Below, piece by piece: positions 27,893 to 54,798 of a DNA stretch of 64,000 bases. Each line of letters opens with the position of its first letter. The stretch's first letter is position 1. Made by a program: the position numbers and the translations under genes. Source of the DNA: an uncultured delta proteobacterium (GTDB lineage: Bacteria > Desulfobacterota > Binatia > Binatales > Binataceae); the NCBI GenBank assembly GCA_963782535.1, contig CAWAKE010000009.1:246222-310221 (forward strand). Reading direction: 5' to 3'. The notes beneath the pieces are model-generated. The model searched no databases. It worked only from the letters and a program-made list of their open reading frames with translations, and was not told the origin of the DNA.

Positions 27893-27918
27893 CCGCGGCA
27901 AGAAATAAGGAAGGGCAA

Positions 27919-28479: not shown

Positions 28480-28523
28480 GGCCTTGACCTGATCAATCGA
28501 GCAGAACTTGGAGTCGAAAGGAT

Positions 28524-29336: not shown

Positions 29337-29443
29337 GCCCACGGCGCGGCCCGATTGCCGAGTCGCGGGTGCGCGCCGACACCTACTGGCGAAGAAGAAT
29401 CCGGATACCCACGCCGGCGCGCCGGCGTGGGTATCTCGCTAAA

Positions 29444-30520: not shown

Positions 30521-30844
30521 ACGATCTCCTTGCCGACAGCTTGCTGTTCCATCGCACATTAAGGGATCGGAGCGCGTGCGGTCAAAGACCCCGGAAGTCG
30601 CGCGCAGAGTCCCGTCAACCATCGAGATCTATCTGTTGGCAGCCGAAAAGTCACCTGTTCTGGCCGCCGAAATCCTGGCCGCGATCAGCCGGGATTTGCC
30701 GCTGAAATTACAGTGGACGTGTTAGGATCGACTTCGAGCGAATCGCCGCGTGAAATTCCGGCAAGATTTGAGTATCGTGCATCCCGCCTCGAGTAGCGTG
30801 CAAACTTTTTCGATGAGCGCCATTATGGGCGCAGGAGAGCTTCG

Positions 30845-31729
30845 ATGGACATAGGCATTCTGGTCGCGACCACGGCTCGAACGGGAGCTATAGATGCGAT
30901 CGCTCGGGCGGTCGAGAACGGCGGATACGAATCGCTCTGGATACCCGAACATCCGGTGATTCCGGTCGGGTTCAAGACCGCAGTTCCCGGCGGTGGCAAG
31001 TTGCCCGAACACTACGGCCGCTGGGTCGATCCGTTCGTCGCGCTTTCAATCGCCGCAGCCGTGACGAAGCGAATCAAGCTTGCGACCGGCATCTGTCTGT
31101 TGCCGGAGCGCGAGCCGCTGATCACGGCCAAGTCGGTAGCGAGCCTCGACCTCTACTCTGGAGGCCGCGTGGTGCTGGGCGTTGGCGCGGGATGGCTGCG
31201 GGAAGAGACCGAGGCGATGGGCGCCCACTTCGGATCGCGCTGGAAGCGGCTGCGCGAGACGGTCGAGGCGATGCGCGTGCTCTGGTCAGAACCGGAGCCG
31301 GCCTACGCGGGCGAGTTGGTTCATTTCCCCGCCGTCAGATGCGAACCGAAGCCCTTGCAGAAGCCCTATCCGCCAATTCTTCTCGGCGGTCACGGACCGA
31401 AGGCCCTCGAGCGGGTGGCGCGGACCTATGATGGGTGGATGCCGCTGGTGCCCAACCCTGAATCGCTCAAGCGCGATGTGACGGCGTTGCGGAAACTCGC
31501 TGCCGACCACGGACGCGACCCCAAGGCGTTGCATATCACCGCGCTGGTTGATCCGGGCGAAAACGGACCGTCGTCAGACGAGCTGCAGAAGTACGCCGAG
31601 GCCGGAGCAAGCCGCGTAGTGCTCTTCTCGCAACGGATGGCGATTGCGATCGCCGACGGTGCAGCACTCGAACTGATCAAACGTTTCGAGCCAGTCGTGG
31701 AACAGGCGCGAAAGATCGGGACAAAGTGA
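30845..31729 (+). CDS. LLM-class F420-dependent oxidoreductase
   Basis: 294 aa; MDIGILVATTAR.., ESLWIPEHPVIP, KLATGICLLPEREPLITAKSVASLDLYSGGRVVLGVGAGW. Confidence 0.8.
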   Translation: MDIGILVATTARTGAIDAIARAVENGGYESLWIPEHPVIPVGFKTAVPGGGKLPEHYGRWVDPFVALSIAAAVTKRIKLATGICLLPEREPLITAKSVASLDLYSGGRVVLGVGAGWLREETEAMGAHFGSRWKRLRETVEAMRVLWSEPEPAYAGELVHFPAVRCEPKPLQKPYPPILLGGHGPKALERVARTYDGWMPLVPNPESLKRDVTALRKLAADHGRDPKALHITALVDPGENGPSSDELQKYAEAGASRVVLFSQRMAIAIADGAALELIKRFEPVVEQARKIGTK

Positions 31730-35960: not shown

Positions 35961-37019
35961 TCAGCGCCAGATACCGAAGACACGGAATCCCGTTGATACC
36001 CACGACGTGAAGTGAGCCGTGACCTCCATCGGGCGTGCGCCCATGATGCCCGCAGCAACAATCCAGTTGCGTAACTCATGATCGCCGTTGTTCTCGATAT
36101 CCGGCGAGTCGTAGTCGGCCAACAGGCTCCCTTGTCCGCGTTCGAACCAGTGCATCTTTTCAATATTGCCTTCGAAATCCATGCGCATGCGATCGTATTT
36201 CCTGGTAAGCCATGTGTGCGACCAGGTTGAACTCGGACAAATCATTACGCGCTCTGGTCGTCGCATGAGGACCTGGCGAATTGCCCGGCCCATCGCATAG
36301 AGGCGGTGTGAGGTCGGCGCGGGCGGATACCCGCTGGTCGATTTAGCCTCCAACCCCTGTCCCGACGCCATGGTTCCGAAAATGTTGAGATCGGAGCCAT
36401 AGCAGTTAATCATGATCGGGACGAGCGGGTACTTGCCTCCATCGTTGTGCAGAAAGAGCTGAGTATTGGCGTGTGCGTGGCCCAAGCCGTTTTGCCAGCG
36501 GTCGCTATTCAGATCATTGGAGGAAGCGATGTCGAATTCATTTCTAATCAATTCATCGCGAATAGCCACTGCCAATTCGGAATGACAAGGCCACGAATAG
36601 CGATGATCAGCGGCAACACCCCAGGTGGCCTTGATATATTCCACATCCCCGGGCAGGCGCGACATATTAAACGGCTTTGCGTCCACCTCGTTGCCAACAT
36701 AGATAGCGTAAGGGGGGAGGTTATTGGCCTGGAAGCATTGAGCCTGATCGTCACCGATCATCAGGATCGCGTCCGGGGAGACTTCATCGATGTATTCGCG
36801 CAACCGGTTGAACGCCTGCCAATGCAAATGATGATGCTCCTCGCCCACTTTTGTGGGGTTGTCGCCAAGCTGCGCGACGGCTTCCGGTGGATCCTGGAAC
36901 GGTCGTCCATCCAGCTTTTCCACCATCTTGCAGAGCATCTGGCGCATCCGAAACATGTTTTGCGGCGCGCTCATGAGATAGGGCACGTGAGAAGTCCCGA
37001 TGCCAAAAATTTCTCCCAT
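35961..37019 (-). CDS. class III extradiol ring-cleavage dioxygenase (LigB family)
   Basis: MGEIFGIGTSHVPYL N-terminus and His-rich active-site region (EEHHHLHW.., ..HAHAN..) consistent with LigB/AmnB-type catechol extradiol dioxygenases. 352 aa. Confidence 0.6.
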   Translation of the reverse strand: MGEIFGIGTSHVPYLMSAPQNMFRMRQMLCKMVEKLDGRPFQDPPEAVAQLGDNPTKVGEEHHHLHWQAFNRLREYIDEVSPDAILMIGDDQAQCFQANNLPPYAIYVGNEVDAKPFNMSRLPGDVEYIKATWGVAADHRYSWPCHSELAVAIRDELIRNEFDIASSNDLNSDRWQNGLGHAHANTQLFLHNDGGKYPLVPIMINCYGSDLNIFGTMASGQGLEAKSTSGYPPAPTSHRLYAMGRAIRQVLMRRPERVMICPSSTWSHTWLTRKYDRMRMDFEGNIEKMHWFERGQGSLLADYDSPDIENNGDHELRNWIVAAGIMGARPMEVTAHFTSWVSTGFRVFGIWR

Positions 37020-37033
37020 CGAATTGCCTCCTG

Positions 37034-38029
37034 TCAGGTTCGCAGCGCCAGCTTGAGCAGATCCAGCGCGTTAGCGGCGAGGATTTTGTTTTCGGCCTCG
37101 CGCTCGAGACCCAGCGCCTGGATCTCCTGCACTGGATGAGCTACGCCCGCCGGCAGCGGATAATCAGTGCCGACCACGAAACGCTCGGCTCCGTAACAAC
37201 CCACCAGATGGCGCAACATCGGTGGATTGAGCGCGATGGTATCGAACGAGAGTTGTTCGAGGTAACTCGAGGGCAAACGCGGAATTGCGCTGCGGCATTC
37301 AGGTAAAAGTTTGTAGCCCATGTCCAGCCGCCCGATTATGCTCGGCAAGGTGCCGCCGGCATGGTAAAGCACAACCCGCAGCGAAGGATGCCGCTCGAGC
37401 ACTCCACCATAGATCAGCAGCGCCGCCGCGAGGCCAGTATCGAAGAGATTCCCCACTAGATTGCCAAGAAAATAGCGTGCGAACGCGCCGCGCGGTGCGG
37501 CTTCGAACGGATAAACGCACACCGCGATGCCGAGCGCGGCGGCGGCTTCCCAAAATACCTCGAACGCAGGCTCGTCCAGCTGCCGTTCGATCACTCTTGG
37601 TGGTATTTCCACTCCGCGAAATCCCAGCTTGGCAGCGCGTTCGAGCTCCTTGGCAGCCAGCGCGGGATCCTGCATAGGTACTGAAGCCAACGGAACAAAA
37701 CGATCGGGGTTGCTCGCGCCGACAGCCGCCAGCGCCTCGTTGTTCACTTGCGCAATAGCCAGTCCCAGTTCAGGCGCGACTTCGGGATACATCAGGAACG
37801 GCACGCACGATACCGCTTGCACCGTCACTCCTTCGCGATCCATGTCCGCGATACGCGCACGGATATCCGAGATCGGTCCCTCGATCGGCCTCATTGCGGA
37901 TTCTTGGATAACAAAAAAGCGGCGACCGCCACGTTCGATAATTCGTGTCGAGTAGTGTTCACGCTCGCGTGCGAGAAACGCGATCACCTCGGGTGCGACC
38001 ATGTGGTTGTGCATGTCGACTACTTGCAT
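37034..38029 (-). CDS. amidohydrolase-2 family enzyme (ACMSD/LigW/LigJ-like hydrolase or decarboxylase)
   Basis: Trimmed to MQVVDMHNHMV (metal-binding HxH), later HAGG and VVGTDYPLP (metal Asp) motifs of the PF04909 TIM-barrel. The upstream 74 aa of the track ORF are Arg/Gly-rich and implausible. Confidence 0.7.
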   Translation of the reverse strand: MQVVDMHNHMVAPEVIAFLAREREHYSTRIIERGGRRFFVIQESAMRPIEGPISDIRARIADMDREGVTVQAVSCVPFLMYPEVAPELGLAIAQVNNEALAAVGASNPDRFVPLASVPMQDPALAAKELERAAKLGFRGVEIPPRVIERQLDEPAFEVFWEAAAALGIAVCVYPFEAAPRGAFARYFLGNLVGNLFDTGLAAALLIYGGVLERHPSLRVVLYHAGGTLPSIIGRLDMGYKLLPECRSAIPRLPSSYLEQLSFDTIALNPPMLRHLVGCYGAERFVVGTDYPLPAGVAHPVQEIQALGLEREAENKILAANALDLLKLALRT

Positions 38030-38073
38030 GGTTGCTCCCAAGCCAATCGCCCGGCGGATAGTAGTGAGACCCG

Positions 38074-38568
38074 CTATAAGATGATGCTGACCTTGCCGTG
38101 CGGACGCAGCGTCTCTAAATCCAGAACGGCCTTGCGTTCCCGGATCTTCAGCGCGCCCTCGCGCCGCACCAATTTGAATTCGTAATGGCCCACGTATGCG
38201 TCGACCGTTTCGAAGCGCATCCGATAGACGACGAAGTTTGCCGTCACGCAAATATTTTCGCCGTCGGCTCCGAGCACTCGAACATTAGTAATCAGGCGGC
38301 GGGTGCGCGAGTGAGGTGTCTCAGCGTGCGCCGACTTGCCCGTCAATTGCTTCACGCGCGAATGCAGCCGGACCGCATCGTCCGCGATCAGGAACAGTGT
38401 GTCGCTGGGATTGCCGTCAGGGTTGTCCGTCGGCGGCACATAATAGGAAATGTCATCGGTCAACATCCCGAGCCATTCTTCGAGACGCCAGCCGTCCAGC
38501 AGCGCGGCCTCAGCATAAAGTAGCTGCTCAACCTCGGCTGGTGTGGGTAGATCTGCGCTGCTTGTCAT
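38074..38568 (-). CDS. ring-hydroxylating dioxygenase beta subunit
   Basis: LLYAEAALLDGWRLEEWLGMLTDDISYYVP NTF2-like beta-subunit signature. ATG at 38566-38568 overlaps the alpha-subunit stop (ATGA). Confidence 0.8.
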   Translation of the reverse strand: MTSSADLPTPAEVEQLLYAEAALLDGWRLEEWLGMLTDDISYYVPPTDNPDGNPSDTLFLIADDAVRLHSRVKQLTGKSAHAETPHSRTRRLITNVRVLGADGENICVTANFVVYRMRFETVDAYVGHYEFKLVRREGALKIRERKAVLDLETLRPHGKVSIIL

Positions 38569-39851
38569 GCCGCCTTCCGCGCGCGGCGGGCTTGCGGCGC
38601 CGTTATCAGTGTGTGCCATCGGCGCCAGAATGTACGCATCTGCAGCTCGTCGGAGACCCCGGGCTCGTCGCGCTTCATCCCCCGCGAGATGTCAGACCAT
38701 TCGACTTCGGGATTGGCAAATCCGCGCTGGCACGATTCGAGCGCCTCGACGTCGTCAGGCGTTGCAAATCCGCCGGGCCCGAGAAAAGTCAGAAAATTGT
38801 CGAGCCGAAGGGCGAGATCCTCGGGTCTTTCCTTCACTGGAGAAAGCGCCCATGCGTCCACTTCCATGTAATCGGGCGCGATCGGGAAAAACGTGCGGAT
38901 AGTTATCGCCATGATGTCGTTGATGACGAGATTTGGGAAAATCAACAGATTACGACAGGTATGCGCGATCCGCCCCGCGCGCTCGGGGCCGCACCGATCT
39001 TCGAGCGCACGATAGATTTCATCGATGCGTGCCCTGCGCTCTTGGCCGAACAACGGAATCCATTGCGCGATAGGACGACCGAACGGCGCCGAGTACTCGA
39101 TCACGGCATGGCCGTTGCCGAGATCCACGACCTTTTGACGCCACAACATTTCGCCTTTCAGATTGACTCCGCTGTCGGCCAGGAAATTGAAATAGCGCTG
39201 ATGCGTCGGAAGTGCGTGATAGCCGTCGATGCTGTTCTCGGCCAACAGCTTCCAGTTCGCGCGGATGCTGTACGATTGTGTGCCGCCGACAATTTTCATC
39301 CCGGTTTCCGATTGGTCGCAAACCAGATCCAGATACTCTGTAGCGCCGGCAAGATAATCGACCAGCCGCGGCACCGTACGACTGAAGCTCACGAAGATGA
39401 ACCCGCGATAGCTATCGGCCTGTGGCGCAGGAACGAGTCCCAACTCCTCGCGTTTGAATGCCCGCCCGTAGGAATCCTCGCCCGGAATCCCCACCAGATC
39501 GCCGCGTGTATTGAAAGTCCATGCGTGGTACGGGCACTGAAACGTCCGCGCATTACCGCATTTTTCACGGCAGACCATGGCGCCCCGATGGGTGCAGGTG
39601 TTGAGCAACACTCGCACTGTTCCATCGTCGCCGCGCACGATGATCAACGGGCGACCGGCCACCCGCCGCGCCCGATAGTCGCCCGGAAGCGGCACTTCGG
39701 ACTCGTGACCGGCATAAATCCAGCAATTCGCGAATATCCGCTCGCGCTCCATCTCCAGATATTCCGGCCCGACCATGACCCGGCGATTCACGCGAAATAA
39801 TCCTGCTGTCCGATCATCAATGATCAGATTCGATGGCGACGTGCTGTTCAT
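38565..39851 (-). CDS. Rieske aromatic-ring-hydroxylating dioxygenase, alpha subunit
   Basis: Rieske CTHRGAMVC ... CPYHAW plus catalytic domain (DGYHALPTHQ). 428 aa. Confidence 0.85.
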   Translation of the reverse strand: MNSTSPSNLIIDDRTAGLFRVNRRVMVGPEYLEMERERIFANCWIYAGHESEVPLPGDYRARRVAGRPLIIVRGDDGTVRVLLNTCTHRGAMVCREKCGNARTFQCPYHAWTFNTRGDLVGIPGEDSYGRAFKREELGLVPAPQADSYRGFIFVSFSRTVPRLVDYLAGATEYLDLVCDQSETGMKIVGGTQSYSIRANWKLLAENSIDGYHALPTHQRYFNFLADSGVNLKGEMLWRQKVVDLGNGHAVIEYSAPFGRPIAQWIPLFGQERRARIDEIYRALEDRCGPERAGRIAHTCRNLLIFPNLVINDIMAITIRTFFPIAPDYMEVDAWALSPVKERPEDLALRLDNFLTFLGPGGFATPDDVEALESCQRGFANPEVEWSDISRGMKRDEPGVSDELQMRTFWRRWHTLITAPQARRARKAA

Positions 39852-39884
39852 TTTGACGATCCTCCGTGCGAGGTTGGCGGCGCG

Positions 39885-40709
39885 CTATTCACGAGGCTCC
39901 GACGGATCCCAGGCCCAATAACGCGACACCGTTCCCGCGTCGACCCGCAAGTCGGTTCCCGTGATCATTTCTGCGTCGTCGGAGGCGAGAAATACGGCCG
40001 CGCGAGCATAATGCTGCGGACTCGGCAGCTTTTGCATCGGAGTGCGCCTGCGAAATGGTTCGAACATTTCCACGATGCGCTCGGCGTGCGGAACGGCGCG
40101 GCCCCAACGCGCCGCTCGATCCAAGCTTTCCGCCGGGTCTGTGGCCGTTGGCGTGAGGCTGTTGACGCGAATTCCGTGATCCACCAATTCCATCGCAACC
40201 GACCGCGTGAAATTCAGCAGCCCGCTCTTGCCGGTGCAATAGGCGACGTTGCGCGGCTGCCCCTGATGGCCGGCTGTTGAAATGATATTGATGATGCTGC
40301 CTTTGCGCCCCTGCTCGATCATCAGGTGCGCTGCATACTTGGTAAACAGGAATGTGCCGGTCAGTATGATTGCTGTTTGCCGCGTCCATTCTGCGAGCGT
40401 CATATCGAGCACGCCCTTCTGATTGAAGATCGCGGCGCCGTTGATCAGGATATCGACCCCGCCGAATTCGTTGCGCGCCCGGGCGACCGCGGCTTTGACT
40501 TGTTCCTCGTCGGTGACGTCGCAGGTCACGCCGATGGCGCGTCCGCCGGCGTTAACGATCGCTCGCGCACAGTCGGCCGCATTCTCGGCTTTGTAGTCAA
40601 CGCAAACGATTGCGGCTTGCTCGGCCGCCAGTCCTTCGGCGATTCCCCCGCCGATATTTGCGCTCGTTCCAGTGACTATCGCAACCTTACCGTCGAGCTT
40701 CATGGTCAT
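39885..40709 (-). CDS. SDR-family oxidoreductase (cis-dihydrodiol-dehydrogenase-like)
   Basis: GKVAIVTGTSANIGGGIA cofactor motif, NGAA, catalytic YCTGK. 274 aa, immediately upstream of the dioxygenase alpha gene on the same strand. Confidence 0.85.
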   Translation of the reverse strand: MTMKLDGKVAIVTGTSANIGGGIAEGLAAEQAAIVCVDYKAENAADCARAIVNAGGRAIGVTCDVTDEEQVKAAVARARNEFGGVDILINGAAIFNQKGVLDMTLAEWTRQTAIILTGTFLFTKYAAHLMIEQGRKGSIINIISTAGHQGQPRNVAYCTGKSGLLNFTRSVAMELVDHGIRVNSLTPTATDPAESLDRAARWGRAVPHAERIVEMFEPFRRRTPMQKLPSPQHYARAAVFLASDDAEMITGTDLRVDAGTVSRYWAWDPSEPRE

Positions 40710-41108: not shown

Positions 41109-42398
41109 TTATGATTCGCCGTTCTGGCTGATCATGCGGTGAAACTGCACGCTCGCCGCGACCGCCGGGAGGAATCGGGTCTTGAACGCCTCGGGCGAAA
41201 GATTGGTCTCTTTCGCGAGCCGCGTGAGCATCGGTTCCTCCAGATCCTCGGCCTCAAGTCGAATCATGTACGAGCGCGCCACCTGATACGATTCCGCCGT
41301 CACGTCAACGCTGCGCGTGCGCACTCGGCCGGTTGCTGGGTCGAGCATCTCGTCGAGTTTGATCGGTTTGATCCGCCCGTTGACGACCGCGATCATTGCG
41401 CCCGAATTACCGCCGAGCAGATAGCGCACCGCACCGTAGCCAAGCGTGCGGGTATAGTCGATGTCGAACGGAAGCGGTCTCGCACAGCGCAACTCATAGC
41501 CGATCTCTTTGTTGACCACAGTCATCTGGATCCCGAGTCCGGCCAACGCCTCACGTACGTTGTCGCGCAGAAATAGCCCGAGCGGAATCTCTCCCAGCCG
41601 TCGATGGCCGTAAGCATCGCGCTCGACGCTTTCTGCCTGCGGCAGCGACGCCGGATCGATGAGTGCGGCAATGCCCTCGGCAATTACTGCCACACCGTCG
41701 GGCCGCCCGTTGGCCCAGCGCTTGATAATTGCGCCCGCGATCAAATCGACCACGGTCGTGAGTTCAAGCTTCGAATCCAGAAACTCCTCGGGGATCAGCG
41801 CCAGGGTCGCGCCCGCAGCCTTGCACATGCCAAGCGCAAGGGCGCCGGAAGTACGCCCCATTGTAACCACCGTGTACCAGCGCCCCGTGGTCAGCGCATC
41901 CTCCATCAAGGACTCGACCACCGTGGTGCCAAACGAACGCGCCGTCTCGAAGCCGAAAGTTGGCAGGTTCTCGGGCAAAGGCAGGTCGTTATCGATAGTT
42001 TTCGGCACCGTGACTATGCTCAGCTTGTGCCCGGCGCGCTCCGCGATCTTGGCCGCGGCAGTTGTCGTGTCGTCACCCCCGATACACACCAGGTAACGGA
42101 CCGAAAGCTCTTCCAGCGACCGCACCGCGCGCTCGAGACTCGCCTCCTCTCGCGCCGGATTGGTGCGCGAGGTTCCGAGAATCGAGCCGCCGGTGAAATG
42201 AATTCGGCTCACATCGGAGATTTTAAGCTCGACCGCGCGCGACGTGTCACCGCGCGCCAGCCAGTGGTACCCTTGTGGAATTCCGATTACCCGCAGCCCC
42301 GAGTTGATTGCCTCGATAGTCGCCGCTGCAATCACTGCGTTGATCCCGGGGGCGGGTCCACCGCCTACCAAGATCGCCAATGTCTGCTTCTGTGGCAT
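41109..42398 (-). CDS. pfp: 6-phosphofructokinase, pyrophosphate-dependent type
   Basis: LAILVGGGPAPGINAVI, GGDDT (Asp where ATP-PFKs have Gly) and PKTIDND (Lys where ATP-PFKs have Gly), MGR substrate motif. Start trimmed to MPQKQTL. Confidence 0.75.
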   Translation of the reverse strand: MPQKQTLAILVGGGPAPGINAVIAAATIEAINSGLRVIGIPQGYHWLARGDTSRAVELKISDVSRIHFTGGSILGTSRTNPAREEASLERAVRSLEELSVRYLVCIGGDDTTTAAAKIAERAGHKLSIVTVPKTIDNDLPLPENLPTFGFETARSFGTTVVESLMEDALTTGRWYTVVTMGRTSGALALGMCKAAGATLALIPEEFLDSKLELTTVVDLIAGAIIKRWANGRPDGVAVIAEGIAALIDPASLPQAESVERDAYGHRRLGEIPLGLFLRDNVREALAGLGIQMTVVNKEIGYELRCARPLPFDIDYTRTLGYGAVRYLLGGNSGAMIAVVNGRIKPIKLDEMLDPATGRVRTRSVDVTAESYQVARSYMIRLEAEDLEEPMLTRLAKETNLSPEAFKTRFLPAVAASVQFHRMISQNGES

Positions 42399-42952
42399 GA
42401 TTATAGACCTTGTACCCACCCGCCTCCTGACGGCCTTTCAGCGCCAGGTTGTGATTGTTGTTCTGGCGCAATAGTTCGAGATCGCTGGCGAAGAAATTGC
42501 GAAAGTGAATCGGAGCGCGTCTCTTCGCCGGCGAATCCCACAATCGAGCAACCGATGCCGTGTTGGCTTTTCGCGTCCCCTATAAGAATTATCCCTCGGA
42601 CCGGCGCCAGTCGAATGCCCTTCATTCTGCTGATGCGATTATCCCCCTGTTCGCGCCCCGCACGTCCGTCGCAGTTACTGGGGTTCCGCAGCCTGCCGAC
42701 CGGCGCCAGCGCACCGGCTGTGACCGATCCATGAGTTACCATTGCCATCGCCGAAGCCGCCGATTGCTCACACATCACCTGATAAGCAATTTTTGCTCCC
42801 GTGCGGTCCCTCGCACTGCTTACTCTCATAAGAGGTGGCTATTCGAAATTCACGCAGTAGGGTCAACGCAGGCCTTGCGCAGTTCCGGATTGTTGTAATA
42901 GATGAGCTATCGACAGATTAGTAATTGAGACGACGCTTCATAAGGAGAAATC

Positions 42953-43330
42953 ATGGCTGCCAATTGCGAAAAAGTTGTTAGCGATCTGTTCGCGGCGTGG
43001 ACCCGTCTGAACGTCGATGACGTCATGACATATTTCACCGAGGATGCCGTATGGGACAATGTCCCCATGGGCCCGGCCAAAGGGCAGGCCGCCATCCGTG
43101 AGATGACGCATGGTTTCATGAAGGATGCGAGCACGTTCAGCGCCAAGATCCTCAAGACCGCTCATGTCGACAACGTGGTCTTCAACGAGCGTGTGGACAC
43201 GATCGTTATGAAGAACGGCAAGAAGGCCGATATTCCGGTCGCTGGAATGTTCGAGCTGAATGACGCCGGCAAAATTAAAGTCTGGCGCGACTATTTCGAC
43301 CTCGGGACTTTCACCAAGCAGGTTTCCTAG
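42953..43330 (+). CDS. limonene-1,2-epoxide hydrolase family protein (LimA-like, NTF2 fold)
   Basis: 125 aa; ends ...KVWRDYFDLGTF. The WRDYFDL heptapeptide is identical to the Rhodococcus LimA active-site segment. NERVD (catalytic Arg/Asp) and DNVPM (Asn) are also present. Strong AAGGAGA RBS. Confidence 0.8.
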   Translation: MAANCEKVVSDLFAAWTRLNVDDVMTYFTEDAVWDNVPMGPAKGQAAIREMTHGFMKDASTFSAKILKTAHVDNVVFNERVDTIVMKNGKKADIPVAGMFELNDAGKIKVWRDYFDLGTFTKQVS

Positions 43331-43478
43331 GTGCGTAGTTACAGGCGGCGCGCCTGACCGCCATCTTGCTCAATCACTTGCCCTTGCCGCGCGCATTCCC
43401 ACGGTAGATGCGTACGCGTATCGATTGGTATTCCTCGTTCGGAAGTTGGCGCCGTGATACTCACGAGAAACCTGAGAG

Positions 43479-44707
43479 ATGAATCGAACTCAAGCAGAAA
43501 ACGAAAAGAGGCCGCCGGCTGATGAAGCGCGTCTGGCCGGCCGGCTTCTGATCGAGCGGGCAATAGGACTCGCTGCGGGATTGCGCGAAAGATCCGACGA
43601 AGGCACCCGCCTTCGCCGCCTGCCCGATGGAAGCTGGAATGCGTTGCTCGATTCGGGCGTGCTACGAGGGCTGCAACCGTCCCGCTGGGGCGGGGGGAAA
43701 CAAATCTCCGCGACTTTTTTACCGCGGTTTCGGAGGTCGCAAGAGCCGACGGTTCCGCCGGTTGGGTGGCCGGAATTGTCGGCGTGCATCCATGGCAACT
43801 CGCATTTTTCCCAATCGAAACCCAACAGGAAGTTTGGGGCGGCGATCCGACCGTGATGCACTCCTCGTCCTATGCCCCTACCGGGCGAGCGGAAAAGGTC
43901 AGCGGTGGATATCGGCTGAATGGGCGCTGGTCCTTTTCGACCGGTTGCGATCACTGCCAATGGGTCAATCTCGGCGCGGTCACCGGCCCAATCGAAATCG
44001 ACGGAACCCCGGTCCAGGATTTTCGCTCGTTTATGCTGCCGCGTCGCGATTATAAAATCGACGACAACTGGCGCGTCGCCGGACTCTGCGGCACCGGCAG
44101 CAAGGATATCGTGGTAGAAAATGCGTTCGTGCCTGCACACCGCAGCCAATCGCATTGGGACTACATGCTGGGACGCGAAATGCCGGGATGGGAGTTCAAT
44201 CCGGCGCCGCTCTATCGCTTGCCGTTCGCGGCAGTTTTCAATTACGCGCTGTCCGCCTCCGTCCTCGGCGCCACGCGCGGATTCCTCGATGCCTGGATTG
44301 AGAGCACCCGGCCCCGCAAACTGGGTCTCGGCGGAATAGCCAGTGAAGATCCCTTCATCCAGAAGCTCCTCTCCGAAGCCGATTACGCGATTGACGCGGG
44401 CATGCTCAAGCTCCGCCGCGACTGCGACGAGTTGATGGACGCGGGCCGCGCGAGCGTCAGCCTCTCCCTGCAACGCCGCGCGGCAATTCGCTACAACGCC
44501 TGCCGCTCGGCGCAATTGGCCGCTCGCGCAATCGACCGCCTGTTTGAGTCGAGTACCGGCAAAGCGATTTTCCTCGATCATCCGCTGCAGCGGCGCTACC
44601 AGGATATCAAGGCGATGCTCGGCCACGCTTACCTCACTGCCGACAGTCCTGCGCGCATGCACGGCGCCATCGCGCTTGGCCAACCGGTAGTCAATCCGAT
44701 GCTGTGA
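43479..44707 (+). pseudogene. ACAD-fold flavin-dependent monooxygenase (HsaA/DszC/HpaH-like), frameshifted
   Basis: N-terminal 70 aa (frame of 43479) read ..LPDGSWNALLDSGVLRGLQPSRWGGG. The continuation ETNLRDFFTAVSEVARADGSAGWVAGIVGVHPWQLAFF... to the C-terminus is in the +1 frame (track ORF 43766..44707). The break falls in the G6 run at about 43692-43697. One extra G would restore a single ~410-aa ORF. Confidence 0.6.
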
Positions 44708-45120: not shown

Positions 45121-46743
45121 ATGAAGCGGGAAAGTGGAATGAATATCGGTGACGCGAACGCGGTGATTGCCGCTAACTTGAGTGGGCGCGGGCGTTTGAG
45201 TCGCGTAGCCGTGCCGCGTTGTCGGCGTTTACTCAGATCCATCGCGGTCACGGCAATACTTGTAATCGCATTAGTTGAACCCGTAAAAGTCCACGCGGCA
45301 ATCGACCTGTTAACTATCGCCGGTCAACCGGTAGTGCTGAGCGCAACCGAACAAAACCGCGAACAGGTCTGGAACTGGTTCCCTGCCACCGACCCGGCGC
45401 AGGGGCCGGATTACCAGAACCGCTATAACTTCATGGGTAGCTGGATTCGGGTCGGCCTCGGTTACCAACTCGACGGTATCAAAGCCTTCGCCGAACTGAT
45501 GAGCCCATTTCTTATAAACCTGCCGGACGATGCGATTGTCGCTCCGCCGCCGGGTAAGGTCGGACCGCAAGGGCTGCTAGGTCTCGGCGCCAACTACTAT
45601 CAACCGCATCAGAATCCGAACGACGCCAGCGTCTTTCTCAAGCAGGCCTACCTCGAATTCGGACGCAACCTGATGCCCGGCTTCAATTTCAAGGGCGGCC
45701 GCTTCGAATTATTCGACGGGCTCGAATACCTGCCTGCGGAACTCAACCCGCAGCTCAGGTGGCTGGCCACCAACCGCATCGCACAGCGGCTGATCGGTAA
45801 TTTCGGCTTCAGTGACATCATGCGATCGTTTGACGGTGCGGTCGCAACCTACGGTAACGATACGTGGCAGGCGACCGTTATGTACGGTGTCCCGACCAAG
45901 GGCGTGTTCGACCTCAACGCCATGGAAGAGGTGCGCAATATGGACGTGGCCTATGCGTCGCTCAACGCTGGGCCGAGCGCTTTTCAATCCGATCTGTGGG
46001 GCGATTCTATCGGCCGGTTCTTCTATATCTATTACAACGACAGTCGCGGGCTGGCGCTGGTGGATAATCGCAGCCTGAGCGCAACGGCGGCTACGGGACC
46101 CGTCTCGATTGACACGGTGGGCGCGGATTACGCTCGCACGCTGACCGTGGGTCCGGGCAGCGCAGACTTTCTATTGTGGGGCGCAGGACAGTTCGGGTCC
46201 TGGGGTGCGCTCAGCCAGCGCGCCTACGCGATGGTGGCTGAGACCGGATATCGGTTTACCCATGCGCCCTGGAAGCCATGGCTACGCCTTGGTTACACCA
46301 TCGGTTCAGGCGACGGTAACAACCATGACTCGACCCACGCCACCTTCTTTCAGATTCTTCCCACCGCCCGGATTTACGCGATGACACCGATTTACAATAT
46401 GATGAATATCAACGACGCTATGGCGCAGTTGATGCTCGACCCGCTCACGAATCTCCAGATCCAAAGTGCGCTCCATGGATTGTGGCTCGACGCCAAAAAG
46501 GATCGCTGGTACGCGGGCGGAGGCGCTTTCGACAACCGAATCTTTGGTTATGCTGCGCGGCCCAGCAATGGTTACGGCTATCTCGGCACCCTGGCGGATT
46601 GTCAGATGACGTGGAAGGCTAACTCGCACTTTGCGTTGCAGCTTTACTACGGTCACGTCTTTGGTGGCAGTGTAGTCGGCAGTATCTATCCCGCGGGCCG
46701 CGAGTCTGACTACGGCTTTATTCAGACAACGTGGTCCCTCTAG
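45121..46743 (+). CDS. putative outer-membrane beta-barrel protein (alginate-export/DUF1302-like)
   Basis: N-terminal signal-like hydrophobic segment (LLRSIAVTAILVIALVEPVKVHAA), Gly/Tyr/Asn-rich alternating amphipathic strands throughout, aromatic C-terminal residue (..TTWSL). Family assignment is by general resemblance only. Confidence 0.45.
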   Translation: MKRESGMNIGDANAVIAANLSGRGRLSRVAVPRCRRLLRSIAVTAILVIALVEPVKVHAAIDLLTIAGQPVVLSATEQNREQVWNWFPATDPAQGPDYQNRYNFMGSWIRVGLGYQLDGIKAFAELMSPFLINLPDDAIVAPPPGKVGPQGLLGLGANYYQPHQNPNDASVFLKQAYLEFGRNLMPGFNFKGGRFELFDGLEYLPAELNPQLRWLATNRIAQRLIGNFGFSDIMRSFDGAVATYGNDTWQATVMYGVPTKGVFDLNAMEEVRNMDVAYASLNAGPSAFQSDLWGDSIGRFFYIYYNDSRGLALVDNRSLSATAATGPVSIDTVGADYARTLTVGPGSADFLLWGAGQFGSWGALSQRAYAMVAETGYRFTHAPWKPWLRLGYTIGSGDGNNHDSTHATFFQILPTARIYAMTPIYNMMNINDAMAQLMLDPLTNLQIQSALHGLWLDAKKDRWYAGGGAFDNRIFGYAARPSNGYGYLGTLADCQMTWKANSHFALQLYYGHVFGGSVVGSIYPAGRESDYGFIQTTWSL

Positions 46744-47681: not shown

Positions 47682-48212
47682 TCAGCAGCATGCTCCCGGT
47701 TTGCGCGGTTGCGCGGTATCGTGTGAGGCCGCGGGCACGCAGCAGGGCGCGTCTGAGGCTTCGGCGGCGGAGCTTTTACGATTGTGAAGCGGGATGCAAC
47801 AAGGCTCACCGTCAGAGCGCCTCATGCTCGTATCGTTGCCAAAGATTGGCACTTCGCCGAGAGTCTGAAAGTTCTCCCAAGCAAGGCCCTGCGGGTCGAG
47901 CACCCAATATTTGTTTCCCTTGGCGTAGCAACATTCGACCTCGGTCTCTTTTAAAGCCGCGGCCCCGCTCGCCTGCTCGGCGCGCATACTCAGTTCCGCG
48001 AGTTCCGCCGAATCCTCGGCCTGAAATCCCAAGTGATTGAGGCCGGGTTGGTGACCGCGCGCTGAAATCGCAAAATTTATGCGCGGCTCCTCCAGCATCC
48101 ACTTGGCATAATCGGCTCGCACAACCGTCGGCTGGATGCCGAACAAATCGGTATAGAACTTGATACTTACTTCCAGATTTTCCACTGCAACGTGAACATG
48201 AAAGCGTTTCAT
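47682..48212 (-). CDS. ArsI/CadI-family VOC (glyoxalase-fold) metalloenzyme
   Basis: Glyoxalase-like betaalphabetabetabeta start (MKRFHVHVAVENLEVSIKFYTDLFG), vicinal cysteine pair ..ETEVECCYAKG.. at about residues 94-95, and a C-terminal tail with three more Cys pairs (EPCCIPLH, APCCVPAAS, GACC). Confidence 0.6.
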   Translation of the reverse strand: MKRFHVHVAVENLEVSIKFYTDLFGIQPTVVRADYAKWMLEEPRINFAISARGHQPGLNHLGFQAEDSAELAELSMRAEQASGAAALKETEVECCYAKGNKYWVLDPQGLAWENFQTLGEVPIFGNDTSMRRSDGEPCCIPLHNRKSSAAEASDAPCCVPAASHDTAQPRKPGACC

Positions 48213-48593
48213 AGAGGCCTCCTCATTCTTGTTTAAAGAAATCTTGCGACAGGCTCGCCGGATGCCGCCGATTGCTTAACTCGCTCGAGCTTCAAGCTTG
48301 ACTGACGCTACTTATAATTCTATAAATATAAAACTATAGAGATGTCAAGCGGGCGACCTGCAGCCGTCGCCGAAATCCGCGGCCGACGCTCAACCTGGGA
48401 CCTCTCAATACCGAAGTGTAGGGAATCCAGGCGTGGACAGTTCGTTTAGTGGTCCCACTTTGCGAGGTAAGCGAGTTTTCGTGAATCAGAGGTTAACGCA
48501 GCGTTACGTCTTGGTTTGTTTTCGGTTGAATCACGCGAACGCAAGCCTTCGAAGATTGATTTCATCAAGGCATAACTCTAGACAGGTAGAACT

Positions 48594-48974
48594 ATGAGGA
48601 AATCGAATGTCATCTCGGGGTTGAGTGCCTTAGCTCAGGAAACCCGTCTCGATATCTTCCGGCTGCTGGTGACGAGAGGGCCCGAGGGACTGCCGGCGGG
48701 TGAAATCGGCATGCGTCTTGGACAGCCCTCGCCCACGCTTTCGTTTCATTTGAATCAGCTCAGGTTCGCTGGGCTCGTGACTTCACGCCGTGAGAGCCGC
48801 TCAATTCTTTACAGCGCAAACTTCAAGGCGATGAACGATTTACTCGCTTATCTGACGGAAAACTGCTGTGGTGGACGCTCGGACTTGTGCGCTCTCGATG
48901 CGTCCGCAACTCGCGAATCAATTCCGGCCTCGATAAAAGCCACGCGTGGCAATAGGACCGACGGTAAAAAATAG
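48594..48974 (+). CDS. arsR: ArsR/SmtB-family metalloregulator
   Basis: LAQETRLDIFRLLV...EIGMRLGQPSPTLSFHLNQLRFAGLV winged-HTH core plus C-terminal Cys cluster ENCCGGRSDLC (type-2 As(III)-binding site arrangement). Divergent from the VOC gene, upstream of acr3. Confidence 0.8.
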   Translation: MRKSNVISGLSALAQETRLDIFRLLVTRGPEGLPAGEIGMRLGQPSPTLSFHLNQLRFAGLVTSRRESRSILYSANFKAMNDLLAYLTENCCGGRSDLCALDASATRESIPASIKATRGNRTDGKK

Positions 48975-49230
48975 GAGAGGGCTCAATGGCCCGTCGCGAA
49001 TTAAACTACCGGTATCGACGATGCAAAGCGCAAATTCTTTTCCCGCATCTATTCGGAACTGGAGAATCGCATAAAAATCATTGCCAGCTTGCCGATCGAT
49101 GCCCTCGACCGCCAGAAGCTGGAGAATCATGCACGCGAGATTGGCAAGGTGAAGCTTCCGAGTAAGGAAGAACGTTGAACACGCCCGTTCGCGATTTGAT
49201 AATGTCCCAACCCGCACCCAGGAGAATACC

Positions 49231-50370
49231 ATGAGCGCGATTCCGGCGAAGCCGGATACTCACATCATGAGGCGGTTGTCGTTTCTCGACCGCTACCTGA
49301 CGCTTTGGATATTTTTTGCGATGGCGCTGGGAGTCGCGATGGGAAATATCCGGCCCGGCGTGAAAGGAGCATTCGATCGACTGACTATCGGAACGACATC
49401 CGTACCGATTGCGATCGGGCTGATCTTGATGATGTATCCGCCGCTGGCAAAAGTAAATTACGACGAACTCGGCGACGTGTTTCGGAACTGGAAGATTCTG
49501 GGCCTATCGCTGGTGCAGAACTGGATCATCGGTCCCGTCCTGATGTTCGCGCTCGCAGTGATCTTTCTGCGCGACCGCCCCGAGTACATGATCGGTCTCA
49601 TCATGATCGGTATCGCGCGCTGTATCGCGATGGTGATCGTGTGGAACGACCTGGCCGATGGCGACGCCGAATATTGCGCCGGATTGGTGGCCTTCAACTC
49701 AATTTTTCAAGTGCTCTTCTATTCGGTCTATGCCTTTGTCCTGATTACTGTTGTCCCGCGGTGGTTCGGGCTTGCCGGTTCGGTCGTGCACATCACGATC
49801 GGTCAAATTGCCGAAAGCGTGGCGATCTACCTCGGGATGCCTTTTGTAGCGGGATTCGCTACATGGAAGGTGCTTACCCATCGCAAGGGTAAGCTCTGGT
49901 ATCGAGAACATTTTATTCCGAAGGTGAGTCCGCTCACCTTGATTTTTCTTCTATTCACTATTGCTGTGATGTTTTCGATCAAGGGTGCTGCGATCCTTCA
50001 ACTGCCGCTCGACGTTGTACGAATCGCGGTACCGTTGCTGCTCTATTTCGCGATCATGTTCGGCGTCTCTTTCATACTGAGCATGAAGGCGGGCGCGACT
50101 TATCCGCAGACGGCTACGCTCTCATTCACTGCCGCATCCAATAATTTTGAACTCGCGATCGCGGTCGCGGTGGCGACCTTCGGCATCGACAGTGGGGCCG
50201 CCTTCGCCGCTGTCATAGGGCCATTGATCGAAGTTCCGGTAATGATCGGATTAGTTGACGTAGCGCTGTGGGCGCGGCGCAGATATTTCGCCGATTCGAC
50301 GGCCACGATCTCCGCGGCGGAATGTTGCAACACGGCGGTCGAAAGCGCCCGCCGCAACCGGCGGATATGA
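49231..50370 (+). CDS. acr3: ACR3-family arsenite efflux permease
   Basis: [21 protein letters not shown] hallmark, conserved TM4 cysteine in [17 protein letters not shown], 10 TM helices, 379 aa. Confidence 0.9.
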
Positions 50371-50759: not shown

Positions 50760-51932
50760 GGAGCCTCTGCACAGGTCGTCATACAGCGGCAGTTCGACAT
50801 AGTAATGAGGATTATGAGGAGGAACGGCAGCAGCGCGCTGGGGTGATCGCTGCTGAGAAGCCATCAGGAGCATTGGTTGCCTCTGGTTCTTGTTCACAAC
50901 CCACACCAGGCCCCGGCTGGGAGCAACCGATGCCGGAGTTGGTAGAGATTGGCCAGCGCGAACATGGTTTCGGCCCGAGCCAGATTCTTGGCCAGCCCGC
51001 GATATCTAACCTTGCTGAAGCCCCACAACTGCTTGAGTACGCGGAAGGCATGCTCGCCGCAAGCGCGGGTGCGCGAACGCACCCGGTTGATCATCCGCCA
51101 GCGCTTGCTCAACGGCCGCTGCGCGGTAGGACGGCGATTGATCCGATAATGTATTCCCCGCGATTCAAGGAAGCTGCGGTCATCTTCCTTCCAATACGCC
51201 TGGTCGCCGAACACCTCGCGCTCGTACCCGTGCAAAAGCTCCGGCAGTTGGGTGACATCGGCGACCGCGGCGTCGGTCGCGGTTACGCTGTGCACGATGC
51301 CACGCTGGTCAGCCCCGATGTGCAGTTTCATCCCGAAGTGCCAGTTCTGGCCCTTACGAGTCTGCTTCATCTCGGGGTCGCGCGTCCCACTGGCGTTCTT
51401 GGTGGAACTCGGCGCCGCGATGATGGTCGCGTCCACAATCGTCCCCGAGCGCAGCAACAGGCCGCGGGTCTCGAGCAGACCGCCGATCGCGGCGAAGATT
51501 GCCTTGGTCAAATTGTGCTTCTCGAGCAGATGACGAAAACGCAGAATCGTGGTCTCATCCGGCACCGTGTCCTCGCCCAGCTCCACCTTGGCAAACCGAC
51601 GCATCGACTCACTGTCGTAGATCGCGTCCTCGGCCTGCGGGTCGGAGAGATTGAACCATTGTTGCAGGAAGTAGATGCGCAGCATCTTCTCCAGCCCCAG
51701 TGGCTGGCGCCCGTTGCCGGCTTTGGGGTAATGAGGCTCGATCAGGCGCAAAAGCCGCGCCCACGGAATCACCGCATCCATCTCGCCCAGGAATCGCTCG
51801 CGCCGGGTAACTTTGCCTTTCCCATTCCATGCCATCGATGCGAACGTCCGCTGATTCCCCATCACCGCACCTCCACTCCTGCCGCTCCCACTTATGATTT
51901 ATACCAAACCGAAACACTTGTGCAGAGGTTCC
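50760..51932 (-). mobile_element. IS5-family insertion sequence (IS5 group), intact, with 4-bp TTAG target-site duplication
   Basis: Imperfect terminal inverted repeats GGAGCCTCTGCACAGGTCGT (left, from ~50760) and GGAACCTCTGCACAAGTGTT (right, reverse complement, ending ~51932), 16 of 20 identical. Flanked by TTAG at 50756-50759 and 51933-51936. Encloses one transposase ORF. Confidence 0.8.
50894..51865 (-). CDS. IS5-family DDE transposase
   Basis: 323 aa with the IS5 signature KQTRKGQNWHFGMKLHIGADQRGIVHSVTATDAAVADVTQ...GDQAYW (DDE triad region). Confidence 0.9.
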   Translation of the reverse strand: MMGNQRTFASMAWNGKGKVTRRERFLGEMDAVIPWARLLRLIEPHYPKAGNGRQPLGLEKMLRIYFLQQWFNLSDPQAEDAIYDSESMRRFAKVELGEDTVPDETTILRFRHLLEKHNLTKAIFAAIGGLLETRGLLLRSGTIVDATIIAAPSSTKNASGTRDPEMKQTRKGQNWHFGMKLHIGADQRGIVHSVTATDAAVADVTQLPELLHGYEREVFGDQAYWKEDDRSFLESRGIHYRINRRPTAQRPLSKRWRMINRVRSRTRACGEHAFRVLKQLWGFSKVRYRGLAKNLARAETMFALANLYQLRHRLLPAGAWCGL

Positions 51933-51943
51933 TTAGTGATTGA

Positions 51944-53506
51944 CTAGGAGTCCGTCCGAGAAATTTCGCCGGTTAAGTTGATCTCCGGATTGGAGCGATT
52001 GGCTATTGATGATGCCGGTCGCCCCAGGATCCTGCGAAGCGCCGGCTGGTCGGCTGGCGACTACAAAGAGGTGCGCGTTTTGCTGCGGTATTTCTCGTGA
52101 CCGCCTGGATGACGGTTACGCATTGCAGAGCCGGTGCAACTTCAAAATGTTGTGGGTGAGACAGACCAGCGCCCACTCGCCCCGGACTTTAGCCAAGCCG
52201 CGCAAAAGAAAGCGGCGAAACCCGCGGGCCTCTTTGATCTGGCCGAAGACCGGCTCCACGATCGTTTTCCGTGTCACATAGATTGCCCGCCCCACCTTAG
52301 TCTGAAGCTTGCGTTTCATGCGGTCGACCCGCGTCGCATTGCGCGGTAACGGTCCGCGCGAGCAGGGCTGGCGGTATTCGTCATGCTTCTGCTTGCCAGT
52401 CGCGATATAGCAATCGATCGGGTCTCCAGACTGACCGAGAGCCGCCAGATACGCGAGGTTCTTCTCCGAGCAATAGCCACTGTCGGCCACGAGGCCGGTG
52501 GGTCGCTGTCCGCTCTGTTGCTCGATCACCTGGACCATCGGTTCGATTTGCTGTTTATCGTTGGCTGCCGGCGTCACGCTCTGCCCCACGATTAACTGCA
52601 ACACCGGCTCCACTGCCGCCTGCGCATTGTAGCCTTGCACCAGACCGTCGCTGCCCTGCATCAGGCGCGACTCCGGGTCGGTGAAATTGTATTGATCTTT
52701 GTCCGCGGGCTTCGCCGATTGCACTTCTGCGCGCGGCTTTCCGGCCTTCTCCGCCGACTGCCGCGCCCGCTCTTCCAGCGCCCGTTGCGCCGCGCGAATC
52801 TTCCTTAGCCGGCTCTCGCGCCGCTGCAACTCTGCGGGTAGCTCGTCGCCCCGCCGATCGGCCCCGTAGTGCGCGTCTTCGGCGGCGTCCACCGCCTCGG
52901 CCTGGGCCAGCAGTTCCCGGACCTCTGCGCGCAGTTGCCGTTGCCGCTCCTGCATCCGGCCATAGCTCATCGCTTTGTGCTTGCTGGCGTTGGCTTTCAG
53001 CTTGGTGCCGTCCAACGCCACCCGCCCCAGTTTCAGCGCTCCCGCTTCCAGCGCGATCTTCAGCACCTCTTCAAACAGCCCGGCCAGCGTCGCCAGATGG
53101 AGCTTGCGAAAATCTGCGATGGTACGGAAGTTCGGCGCGTTGCCCGCCGCCAGCACGCGAAACCCCACGTCCTCGATTAAACGCCGCTCGATGCGCCGCG
53201 AGCTAAATACCCCCACGCAATACCCATACACCAGCACCTTGGTCATCATCCGCGGATCGTAGGGCGGCTGCCCGCGTTGCTCGTCCCCATACGCCGCATC
53301 CAGCGCCGATAGGTTCAGATTGTCGACCACATCGCTGACGAAGTAGACCAGATGATTCTCGGGCAACCATTCACGCAGGCTCGGGGGAAGCAGAAACTCT
53401 TGATCCGGATGGTACGGTCGGTAGCTCTTACCCATGCCTAATTATCTACTACTCACACCCCGTTTTCTTCCTCAGTCAAATAACTATTTCTCGGACACGC
53501 TCCTAG
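51944..53506 (-). mobile_element. IS1182-family insertion sequence
   Basis: 21-bp imperfect IRs CTAGGAGTCCGTCCGAGAAAT (51944-51964) and CTAGGAGCGTGTCCGAGAAAT (reverse complement of 53486-53506), 18 of 21 identical. Encloses one 439-aa transposase gene. Begins 7 bp from the IS5 right-hand TSD. Confidence 0.7.
52116..53435 (-). CDS. IS1182-family transposase
   Basis: MGKSYRPYHPDQEFLLPPSLREWLPENHLVYFVSD N-terminus characteristic of IS1182-family transposases. Coiled-coil middle and C-terminal DDE domain (DSGYCSEKNL). Confidence 0.85.
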   Translation of the reverse strand: MGKSYRPYHPDQEFLLPPSLREWLPENHLVYFVSDVVDNLNLSALDAAYGDEQRGQPPYDPRMMTKVLVYGYCVGVFSSRRIERRLIEDVGFRVLAAGNAPNFRTIADFRKLHLATLAGLFEEVLKIALEAGALKLGRVALDGTKLKANASKHKAMSYGRMQERQRQLRAEVRELLAQAEAVDAAEDAHYGADRRGDELPAELQRRESRLRKIRAAQRALEERARQSAEKAGKPRAEVQSAKPADKDQYNFTDPESRLMQGSDGLVQGYNAQAAVEPVLQLIVGQSVTPAANDKQQIEPMVQVIEQQSGQRPTGLVADSGYCSEKNLAYLAALGQSGDPIDCYIATGKQKHDEYRQPCSRGPLPRNATRVDRMKRKLQTKVGRAIYVTRKTIVEPVFGQIKEARGFRRFLLRGLAKVRGEWALVCLTHNILKLHRLCNA

Positions 53507-53594: not shown

Positions 53595-54713
53595 TCAGGC
53601 GGCCACATGAGCCGTCATCGTGAGATCCGCGGGCTCCTGCAAGGGCTCGGTCTTCCAGCTCTTGACTTCGGGCATCACGTGTTTGACGAAGCATTTCAAG
53701 TTTCGCTCGGCTTCGTCGTATGGCATGCCGGCGTAGCTGAAGTTGAGCATGAAGCCGTTCGCGTCGATGGTCTCGCGGATCGTAGAGAGCTTCTCGATCA
53801 CCTGGCCCGGGGTCCCCCACGGCATCAATTTCGCAAAGTCGGCGGCCGCACCATCGATTCCGTGCTTAGCGATAAACTTGCCGACCTGACTATAGAATTC
53901 ATAACCCTTCTGACTGCCGAATTTGGACGAGGTCATTTCATAATGTTTAATCACCGTCCGGTATTGTGCGGATAGCCACTTCATCGCCTGCTCTTCGGCG
54001 CGGTCCTTGTTCTCATCGACAAACACGAAGCCTCCGCTCAGCGGTTTCGGCGCCGGTGTGGCTCCGTTAACTTCGCGCCACACGCGATGGTAGTTTTCGA
54101 AATCGACCTTTACGGCCTCCCACGGCTTCTGGGGAATGACCAGCAGACCGACGCCAAGCTTGGCCATGATCGGCATCGATTCTGGCGATACCGCGGCGGC
54201 ATAGGTGCGGCCTTTGAAGGACTTAAAAGGAAAGGGCCGAATTTCGCGGCGCGGCTGCTTGGTGTAGGCGCCGCCTTCCATGTAACCGGTTTCGAGGGCT
54301 CGCGTGATCAGCTGTGCATATTCGACGAAGAGATTCCGCCCTTCGTTTTGATCGAGGCGAAAGCCATCGTACTCGATTGGCGCAAGTCCGCGGCCGATCC
54401 CGAAGAGAAAGCGGCCGTCTGATACATGGTCGAGCATTGAGGCCTGCTCGGCGACACGAATCGGGTCATGCCAGGGGAGGACCACGACCATCGAGCCGAG
54501 CTTCACATGCTTGGTTCGCCCTGCCATGTAAGTCAGAAATTGAACGGGATCGGGACACATTGTGTAATCATCAAAATGATGTTCAATCGACCAGACGGAA
54601 TCGAAACCCAAGGGCTCGGCCATCTCGGCGAGTCGGATTTCATTGCGCCAGACCTCGCGGTCGGAGAGTTGATTATTGGGGTTTTGAAAGACTAATCCAT
54701 AACCGACGTGCAT
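53595..54713 (-). CDS. LLM-class flavin-dependent oxidoreductase
   Basis: Trimmed to MHVGYGLVFQNP; FDSVWSIEHHFDDYTMCPDPVQFL, KLGSMVVVLPWHDPIRVAEQASMLDHVSDGRFLFGIGRG. Confidence 0.8.
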   Translation of the reverse strand: MHVGYGLVFQNPNNQLSDREVWRNEIRLAEMAEPLGFDSVWSIEHHFDDYTMCPDPVQFLTYMAGRTKHVKLGSMVVVLPWHDPIRVAEQASMLDHVSDGRFLFGIGRGLAPIEYDGFRLDQNEGRNLFVEYAQLITRALETGYMEGGAYTKQPRREIRPFPFKSFKGRTYAAAVSPESMPIMAKLGVGLLVIPQKPWEAVKVDFENYHRVWREVNGATPAPKPLSGGFVFVDENKDRAEEQAMKWLSAQYRTVIKHYEMTSSKFGSQKGYEFYSQVGKFIAKHGIDGAAADFAKLMPWGTPGQVIEKLSTIRETIDANGFMLNFSYAGMPYDEAERNLKCFVKHVMPEVKSWKTEPLQEPADLTMTAHVAA

Positions 54714-54798
54714 AGTAGCCTCCTCGGGGGCAGAATTTTCCACGAAAGTTGACCGCACTCGCCACCGACAAATCTCTCAGGTTTTTATCGTCGCCATA

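Follow-up and report, generated by a model that had tools for sequence, protein, structure and literature searches.

The gene at positions 42953-43330 of the window, by which we mean the whole 64-kb stretch of DNA that was analysed, encodes a protein that belongs without ambiguity to the limonene-1,2-epoxide hydrolase (LEH) family. Its product is probably a functional LEH-type epoxide hydrolase with an NTF2-like fold, of the 'Trp-type' seen in Tomsk-LEH, a reading that draws on the Pfam LEH score, the PDB and Foldseek matches, an invariant pentad of active-site residues, the dN/dS ratios and the activity of Tomsk-LEH itself. The protein is already recognisable as an LEH and its homologues are publicly named so; it is an uncharacterised member of a known family.

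The gene and the family of its product

The open reading frame exists exactly as described in an earlier note on this DNA, as judged from the list of open reading frames and the alignments. It and its ribosome-binding site lie as follows:

42953..43330, plus strand: LEH-family gene, ATG start, 125 residues plus stop (open reading frame list)
42942..42947, plus strand: Shine-Dalgarno sequence AAGGAG, 5-nt spacer to the ATG (sequence inspection)

The position of AAGGAG bears out the claim of a strong ribosome-binding site, and the motif is unchanged in a relative of 97% identity (L086). Across the open reading frame GC3 is 0.73 against a GC2 of 0.36, which matches the genuine genes of the window; the reading frames found inside the upstream intergenic region, where GC1-3 is flat, and those antisense to the LEH gene have a composition unlike that of real genes. 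A tblastn search found no second LEH-like gene in the 64-kb window.

The best-scoring model for the protein is Pfam LEH (PF07858), at 67.8 bits against a cutoff of 24 and covering profile positions 5-119 of 122. The generic model SnoaL_2 is the runner-up at 53.8 bits, above its cutoff of 27, and Pfam SnoaL (PF07366) reaches 25.9 bits, under its cutoff of 28.4. Comparison with LEH chains by phmmer gives E = 3e-16 to 9e-18, the top PDB sequence matches are all LEHs, and HMMER alignments to the solved LEH chains run without gaps across the N-terminal two thirds. Given these E-values and the Pfam LEH score, we conclude that the similarity reflects homology and not chance. Chains of ketosteroid isomerases match the protein weakly (E about 0.01), under family thresholds.

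The NCBIfam model TIGR02246 (SgcJ/EcaC) scores 33.7 bits, barely under its cutoff of 33.95, and this borderline score explains the inconsistent names that homologues carry at NCBI. It also lends something to a different reading, namely that the protein is catalytically irrelevant or fills another NTF2-like role, as a small-molecule binder or as the 'SgcJ/EcaC family oxidoreductase' that some NCBI records make of it, and a variable genomic context is uninformative on the point. We hold such a role to be quite unlikely, given that TIGR02246 describes a generic NTF2-like subfamily and Pfam LEH scores twice as high, and that the exact LEH catalytic residues are invariant despite saturated dS, which is hard to explain without LEH-type catalysis.

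An AlphaFold2 monomer model of the 125-residue protein, built on 37 clade sequences, has a pLDDT of 94.5 and a pTM of 0.86. All of the top 50 Foldseek matches to this model in the PDB are LEHs, with TM scores of 0.85-0.92, and no SnoaL structure is present among those 50. Sequence, profile and predicted fold all back the description of the protein as an LEH homologue with an intact active-site segment. Both the nearest sequences and the nearest folds are those of LEHs, not of SnoaL-type cyclases, the relatives that the earlier note had set against its own reading.

The best structural match is Tomsk-LEH (5AIF/5AIG; TM 0.92/0.93, rmsd 1.5 Å, 125 columns), a hot-spring metagenome LEH reported by Ferrandi and colleagues in 2015. 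Both proteins fall in the 125-residue length class, with no N-terminal extension, and share the W-N-R-D-D pentad and the WRDYFD motif. They differ in that identity, as with any characterised LEH, is only about 32%, in that Tomsk-LEH has Trp, Phe and Val at the positions of A64, I84 and A59, and in their origin, a thermophilic mat as against soil and peat Binataceae, which are a different lineage. The LimA protein of Rhodococcus erythropolis (Re-LEH; 1NWW, 1NU3) has the same fold (TM 0.88), Asp101-Arg99-Asp132 and Asn55 are kept here and WRDYFDL is identical, whereas Tyr53 is replaced by Trp, a 23-residue N-terminal extension is missing and six of nine pocket-lining residues differ. CH55-LEH (5AIH/5AII; TM 0.86) resembles our protein in its VVYDNVPM segment (AVWDNVPM here) and in its ERxD and WRDYFDLG motifs, but its water-binding position is occupied by Tyr and four additional residues are inserted ahead of the ERTD strand. 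The mycobacterial protein Rv2740/Mb2760 EphG (2BNG) belongs to the same family (E 4.7e-6) but is far more distant, at 30 bits; EphG is an LEH-fold enzyme outside the limonene pathway that reportedly acts on sterol and fatty-acid epoxides. SnoaL-type cyclases and ketosteroid isomerases have the alpha+beta cone fold in common with the protein, which differs from them in its LEH-specific Asp-Arg-Asp triad.

The active site and the exchange of Tyr for Trp

The residues to which we would assign catalytic roles are encoded by three short segments:

43052..43060, plus strand: codons of W34-D35-N36, the water-positioning pair corresponding to Re-LEH Y53/N55 (alignment to LEH chains)
43190..43198, plus strand: codons of R80-V81-D82, corresponding to Re-LEH R99/D101, the bridging Arg and the general-acid Asp (alignment)
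43283..43303, plus strand: WRDYFDL with D113, corresponding to Re-LEH D132, the general base (alignment)

The earlier note had singled out WRDYFDL, the Arg/Asp pair of NERVD, the Asn of DNVPM and a Trp in place of the LimA Tyr that precedes this Asn, and the HMMER alignments uphold all four observations: residues 111-117 are identical to Re-LEH 130-136, R80/D82 correspond to R99/D101, N36 corresponds to N55, and W34 aligns with Tyr53. The retention of the Asp-Arg-Asp triad is likewise evident from the alignment, in which D82, R80 and D113 stand opposite D101, R99 and D132 without nearby gaps; neither of the two outcomes that the earlier note had named against its own reading is thus seen. In the water-positioning pair N36 is kept, and Tyr is swapped for Trp34 as in the active Tomsk-LEH. 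Among 136 clade sequences W34, N36, R80 and D113 never vary, and 135 have D82, the exception being a single D82N.

In the full-length Re-LEH sequence of the pocket alignments, residues 24-142 agree with the HMMER alignments save for the engineered substitutions of the variants shown there. The numbering used is consistent with that of PMC3734700, according to which the nucleophilic water of Re-LEH loses a proton to Asp132 and the oxirane receives one from Asp101, while Arg99 keeps the two carboxylates in position and Tyr53, Asn55 and Asp132 hold the water.

By homology to Re-LEH, catalysis would take place in a single concerted acid/base step. D82 (D101) would protonate the oxirane oxygen, while D113 (D132) would deprotonate a water held by N36 (N55), by D113 and by the indole NH of W34, which from its place in the alignment presumably replaces the Tyr53 OH in water binding. 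R80 (R99) would bridge and position the carboxylates of D82 and D113. The water would then open the epoxide to a vicinal trans-diol without a covalent intermediate, with the substrate sitting in a hydrophobic pocket that appears to be reshaped relative to that of Re-LEH.

On the alignment, the hydrophobic residues of this pocket are F13, W16, F55, I84, I94 and V96, and F13, W16, F55 and V96 are near-invariant in the clade. Relative to Re-LEH the lining differs by M32F, L35W, L74F, M78A, I80T, V83A, L103I, L114I and I116V, and a lining so unlike that of Re-LEH implies that limonene oxide need not be the substrate. Positions 59, 61 and 64 are small throughout the clade (A, T, S or V), as against Trp59 and Trp64 in the nearest outgroup.

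Conservation of the two water-positioning residues among LEHs has been described as 'high', not complete (PMC7429986). We tallied position 34 in a family survey in which 1.84 billion cluster representatives were searched exhaustively. In that search 1323 clusters matched at E<=1e-3, and the stricter limit of E<=1e-10 left 297; the tally covers 133 of the best 150 clusters, namely those that span all five positions. Tyr is present in 88 of these 133 representatives, Trp in 32 (24%) and Phe in 6, the last 7 having other residues, and the exact W-N-R-D-D set occurs in 20 of the clusters, which are defined at 50% identity. Tomsk-LEH (segment EDVVWHNIPM) and CH55-LEH (EDVVYDNVPM) are both reported as active, characterised LEHs, and the epoxides that the former hydrolyses include limonene oxide and cyclohexene oxide (PMC7429986, PMC5408032). 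Trp at the Tyr53 position is thus a common natural state of the LEH family, and given its presence in 32 of the 133 representatives and in the active Tomsk-LEH, the exchange is no sign of divergence. The earlier suggestion that it marks a diverged enzyme, or an isomerase or cyclase, is unsupported, since a crystallised and active LEH (5AIF) shares the same W-x-N.

The broader form of that suggestion is that the protein turns the LEH scaffold to a non-hydrolytic reaction, as an isomerase, a MonB/Lsd19-like epoxide-opening cyclase or a SnoaL-type cyclase. SnoaL_2 does score above its cutoff, the epoxide-opening cyclases MonBI and MonBII are detectable relatives of Tomsk-LEH (E about 3e-6), and the titles of PDB entries 7XEE and 7XEF record crystals of engineered Y53F/N55A LEH variants in which the ligands are an oxetane amine and a pyrrolidine methanol; we take these variants to catalyse non-hydrolytic ring-opening. 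However, LEH is the best-scoring model and SnoaL itself stays below its cutoff, N36 is invariant, all five of the catalytic and water positions are kept, and the only change among them, to Trp, coexists with hydrolase activity in Tomsk-LEH. Neither the window nor any related locus offers a polyketide or polyether biosynthetic context. We thus consider a non-hydrolytic reaction unlikely, and hydrolysis of an epoxide the probable function.

Conservation and gene context in the Binataceae

A protein search returned 671 matches, the best 120 of which are all 77-100% identical to the query and nearly all 124-126 residues long. Many carry the JGI name 'limonene-1,2-epoxide hydrolase', while NCBI records for Candidatus Binataceae read either 'LEH family protein' or 'SgcJ/EcaC family oxidoreductase'. 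In species-representative genomes there is a close tier at 73-89% identity, drawn from metagenome-assembled genomes (MAGs) that are mostly Binataceae or unclassified delta-/proteobacteria and include one labelled Bryobacteraceae; the next tier, at 50% identity or less, comprises Alphaproteobacteria, Myxococcota, Acidimicrobiales and others. The orthologue group, at 73-100% identity, is confined to MAGs of the Binataceae and forms one full-length cluster at 50% clustering. The Binataceae lineage is not known to have cultured representatives. Our literature search found no paper connecting Binatota with LEHs, and none for the newer LEH PDB entries 9GOM and 9GOL.

Against nine clade members, dN/dS is 0.05-0.15 and dS is saturated or nearly so, from which we conclude that the gene is functional and strongly constrained. 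The same constraint invites a more specific proposal, that the Binataceae clade is a lineage-specific, near-housekeeping enzyme and not a catabolic accessory, acting on an endogenous or ubiquitous epoxide. Arguing for it are the identity of at least 73% with saturated synonymous sites, the single cluster at 50% identity, the fixed Trp34, the small residues at positions 59, 61 and 64, two of which are Trp in the nearest outgroup, and neighbourhoods that differ between genomes. We regard the proposal as speculative and rather improbable. Candidate substrates could be the epoxide of a lipid or an isoprenoid, or the reactive epoxides that the many monooxygenases of these genomes would produce. If true, the proposal would give LEH-fold enzymes a physiological role outside terpene catabolism. 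The strong conservation of the clade in uncultured Binataceae hints at a natural epoxide substrate. The gene carries little weight for basic biology and is mildly notable as a small conserved enzyme in shifting contexts. Characterised wild-type LEHs are few (PMC7429986), and the biocatalysis toolbox could gain from a mesophilic LEH of the Trp type whose aromatic pocket has another shape, although the applied value is modest.

The context of the gene was compared across about 85 related loci. Gene order in the window runs MMPL, LigB, amidohydrolase, Rieske, SDR and PFK on one side and LEH, HsaA-like, porin, methyltransferase and glyoxalase on the other, and recurs only in an identical contig and in L086, which comes from a different sample. 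A tblastn search of 85 related loci found the window's neighbours beside the LEH gene in none of the approximately 80 others, and all-vs-all clustering of the neighbours in about 85 loci gave no conserved partner gene. In other Binataceae the LEH gene usually lies 13-170 nt after a gene on the same strand whose identity varies: a thiolase in three loci and, in one locus each, an alpha/beta-fold epoxide hydrolase, OpgC, Zn-ADH, a glyoxalase-family protein, GNAT, Kelch or a protein without a Pfam match; in one further locus the LEH gene is divergent from a carboxylesterase gene. With upstream genes so heterogeneous and no conserved partner, we rejected any attempt to read the substrate from the operon or its context.

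In the locus with the alpha/beta-fold enzyme (L002/L003, 4694-6378), an epoxide hydrolase of the EHN plus Abhydrolase_1 type is followed 144 nt downstream by the LEH-family gene. This locus thus sets two mechanistically unrelated classes of epoxide hydrolase in tandem, with three luciferase-like monooxygenases flanking them.

The limA gene sits in a limonene operon. No such context surrounds 42953-43330, and neither at this locus nor across the roughly 85 loci is the gene linked to genes for limonene monooxygenase and diol dehydrogenase; it does not serve as the limA of a limonene operon. That it might nonetheless be a true LimA orthologue, supplying the epoxide-hydrolase step of limonene or monoterpene degradation, is suggested by the family name and by the many monooxygenases of the window, of which five are luciferase-like, two are Rieske enzymes and one is HsaA-like. 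We judge this highly improbable, since there is no conserved monooxygenase or diol-dehydrogenase partner, the upstream genes in Binataceae are heterogeneous, the adjacent flavoenzyme is an HsaA-like aromatic hydroxylase, and the pocket residues are unlike those of Re-LEH. Luciferase-like monooxygenases do recur near homologues in related Binataceae loci. As this window alone holds five of them and two Rieske genes, we take the recurrence as lineage background and not as linkage, and have set these enzymes aside as partners.

The flanks of the gene and the rest of the window

The neighbouring features are as follows:

41109-42419, minus strand: PPi-PFK gene (NCBIfam NF041103 equivalog, 581.5 bits against a cutoff of 550; GGDD and PKTIDND motifs)
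42420..42952, no strand assigned: divergent intergenic region common to the LEH and PPi-PFK genes, presumed promoter and 5'UTR
43342..43356, plus strand: GC-rich palindrome CAGGCG-GCG-CGCCTG, a possible terminator or stabiliser stem 12 nt past the stop codon, without a T-run
43479-44707, plus strand: HsaA-like flavin monooxygenase oxygenase subunit (Acyl-CoA_dh_2 fold; NF045629, 357.8 bits, below the equivalog cutoff)

The earlier note had placed the LEH gene downstream of a PPi-PFK gene, after an intergenic region of 530 bp. NF041103 supports the PPi-dependent identity, and the non-coding gap measures 533 nt when the GTG at 42419 is taken as the PFK start and 554 nt with the 429-residue gene call, in keeping with that length. 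The PFK is however on the minus strand and the two genes are divergent, so that the LEH gene is not transcriptionally downstream of it. The PFK gene itself stands isolated between catabolic genes.

The intergenic region is 90% identical to that of L086, and the last ~110 nt before the ATG are nearly invariant. Within 42420..42952 Rfam gave no match to a regulatory RNA, either at its gathering threshold or with the limit relaxed to E<=1, and the region is free of direct and inverted repeats; a promoter and terminator scan gave chance-level results only, with one weak sigma-70-like match. Beyond the stop codon, the fold at 43342..43356 is unremarkable in the window (z 0.13), and it is only in L086 that the orthologous site is significant, with a 12-bp stem of -24.9 kcal/mol (z -2.15).

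The description of the gene as an orphan that stands alone is partly right. It has no lim-operon partners and its neighbourhood is unconserved beyond the nearest relative, yet it lies in a catabolic region rich in oxygenases, and the HsaA-like gene, for the oxygenase subunit of a two-component flavin monooxygenase, starts 149 nt past its stop codon on the same strand, so the gene is not strictly alone. We rejected this flavoenzyme as an epoxidase partner, as it is of the aromatic-hydroxylase type, has a broken reading frame, and is unlinked to LEH genes in other genomes.

The HsaA-like gene is split by a 1-nt frameshift in the G6 run at 43691-43696 (between RWGGG and ETNLRDFF), and the same break is present in the identical Logan contig, L001. 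In L086 the gene is in frame at this point (GGAGGGG), and some 90 nt upstream it has a 1-nt insertion of its own. The body of the gene is still under purifying selection (dN/dS 0.11), and the break is either that of a recent pseudogene or the product of homopolymer assembly errors. On its 3' side lies a gene for an outer-membrane beta-barrel of the Alginate_exp family (45121-46743, plus strand), an arrangement kept in L086; the barrel may serve the catabolic region as a porin for substrate uptake.

On the other side of the PFK gene an aromatic-catabolic cluster (35961-40709, minus strand) encodes a LigB-type extradiol dioxygenase, an Amidohydro_2 protein, Rieske beta and alpha subunits and an SDR, the Rieske subunits being BenA-like but far under the equivalog cutoff. 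The five luciferase-like monooxygenase genes lie within about 30 kb (25244-31726 and 53595-54755), and to them come a further Rieske alpha subunit, the second of the window (23294-24598), a gene of the CMD family and two genes for enoyl-CoA hydratases, so that the density of oxygenases is very high. A single RNA gene was detected in the window, a tRNA-Leu(UAA) at 10187-10273 on the plus strand. Two adjacent DDE transposase genes (DUF772 and DDE_Tnp_1; 50894-53435, minus strand) suggest an insertion-sequence hotspot, and just upstream of them GC content falls to 0.525 in the bin 48001-50000.
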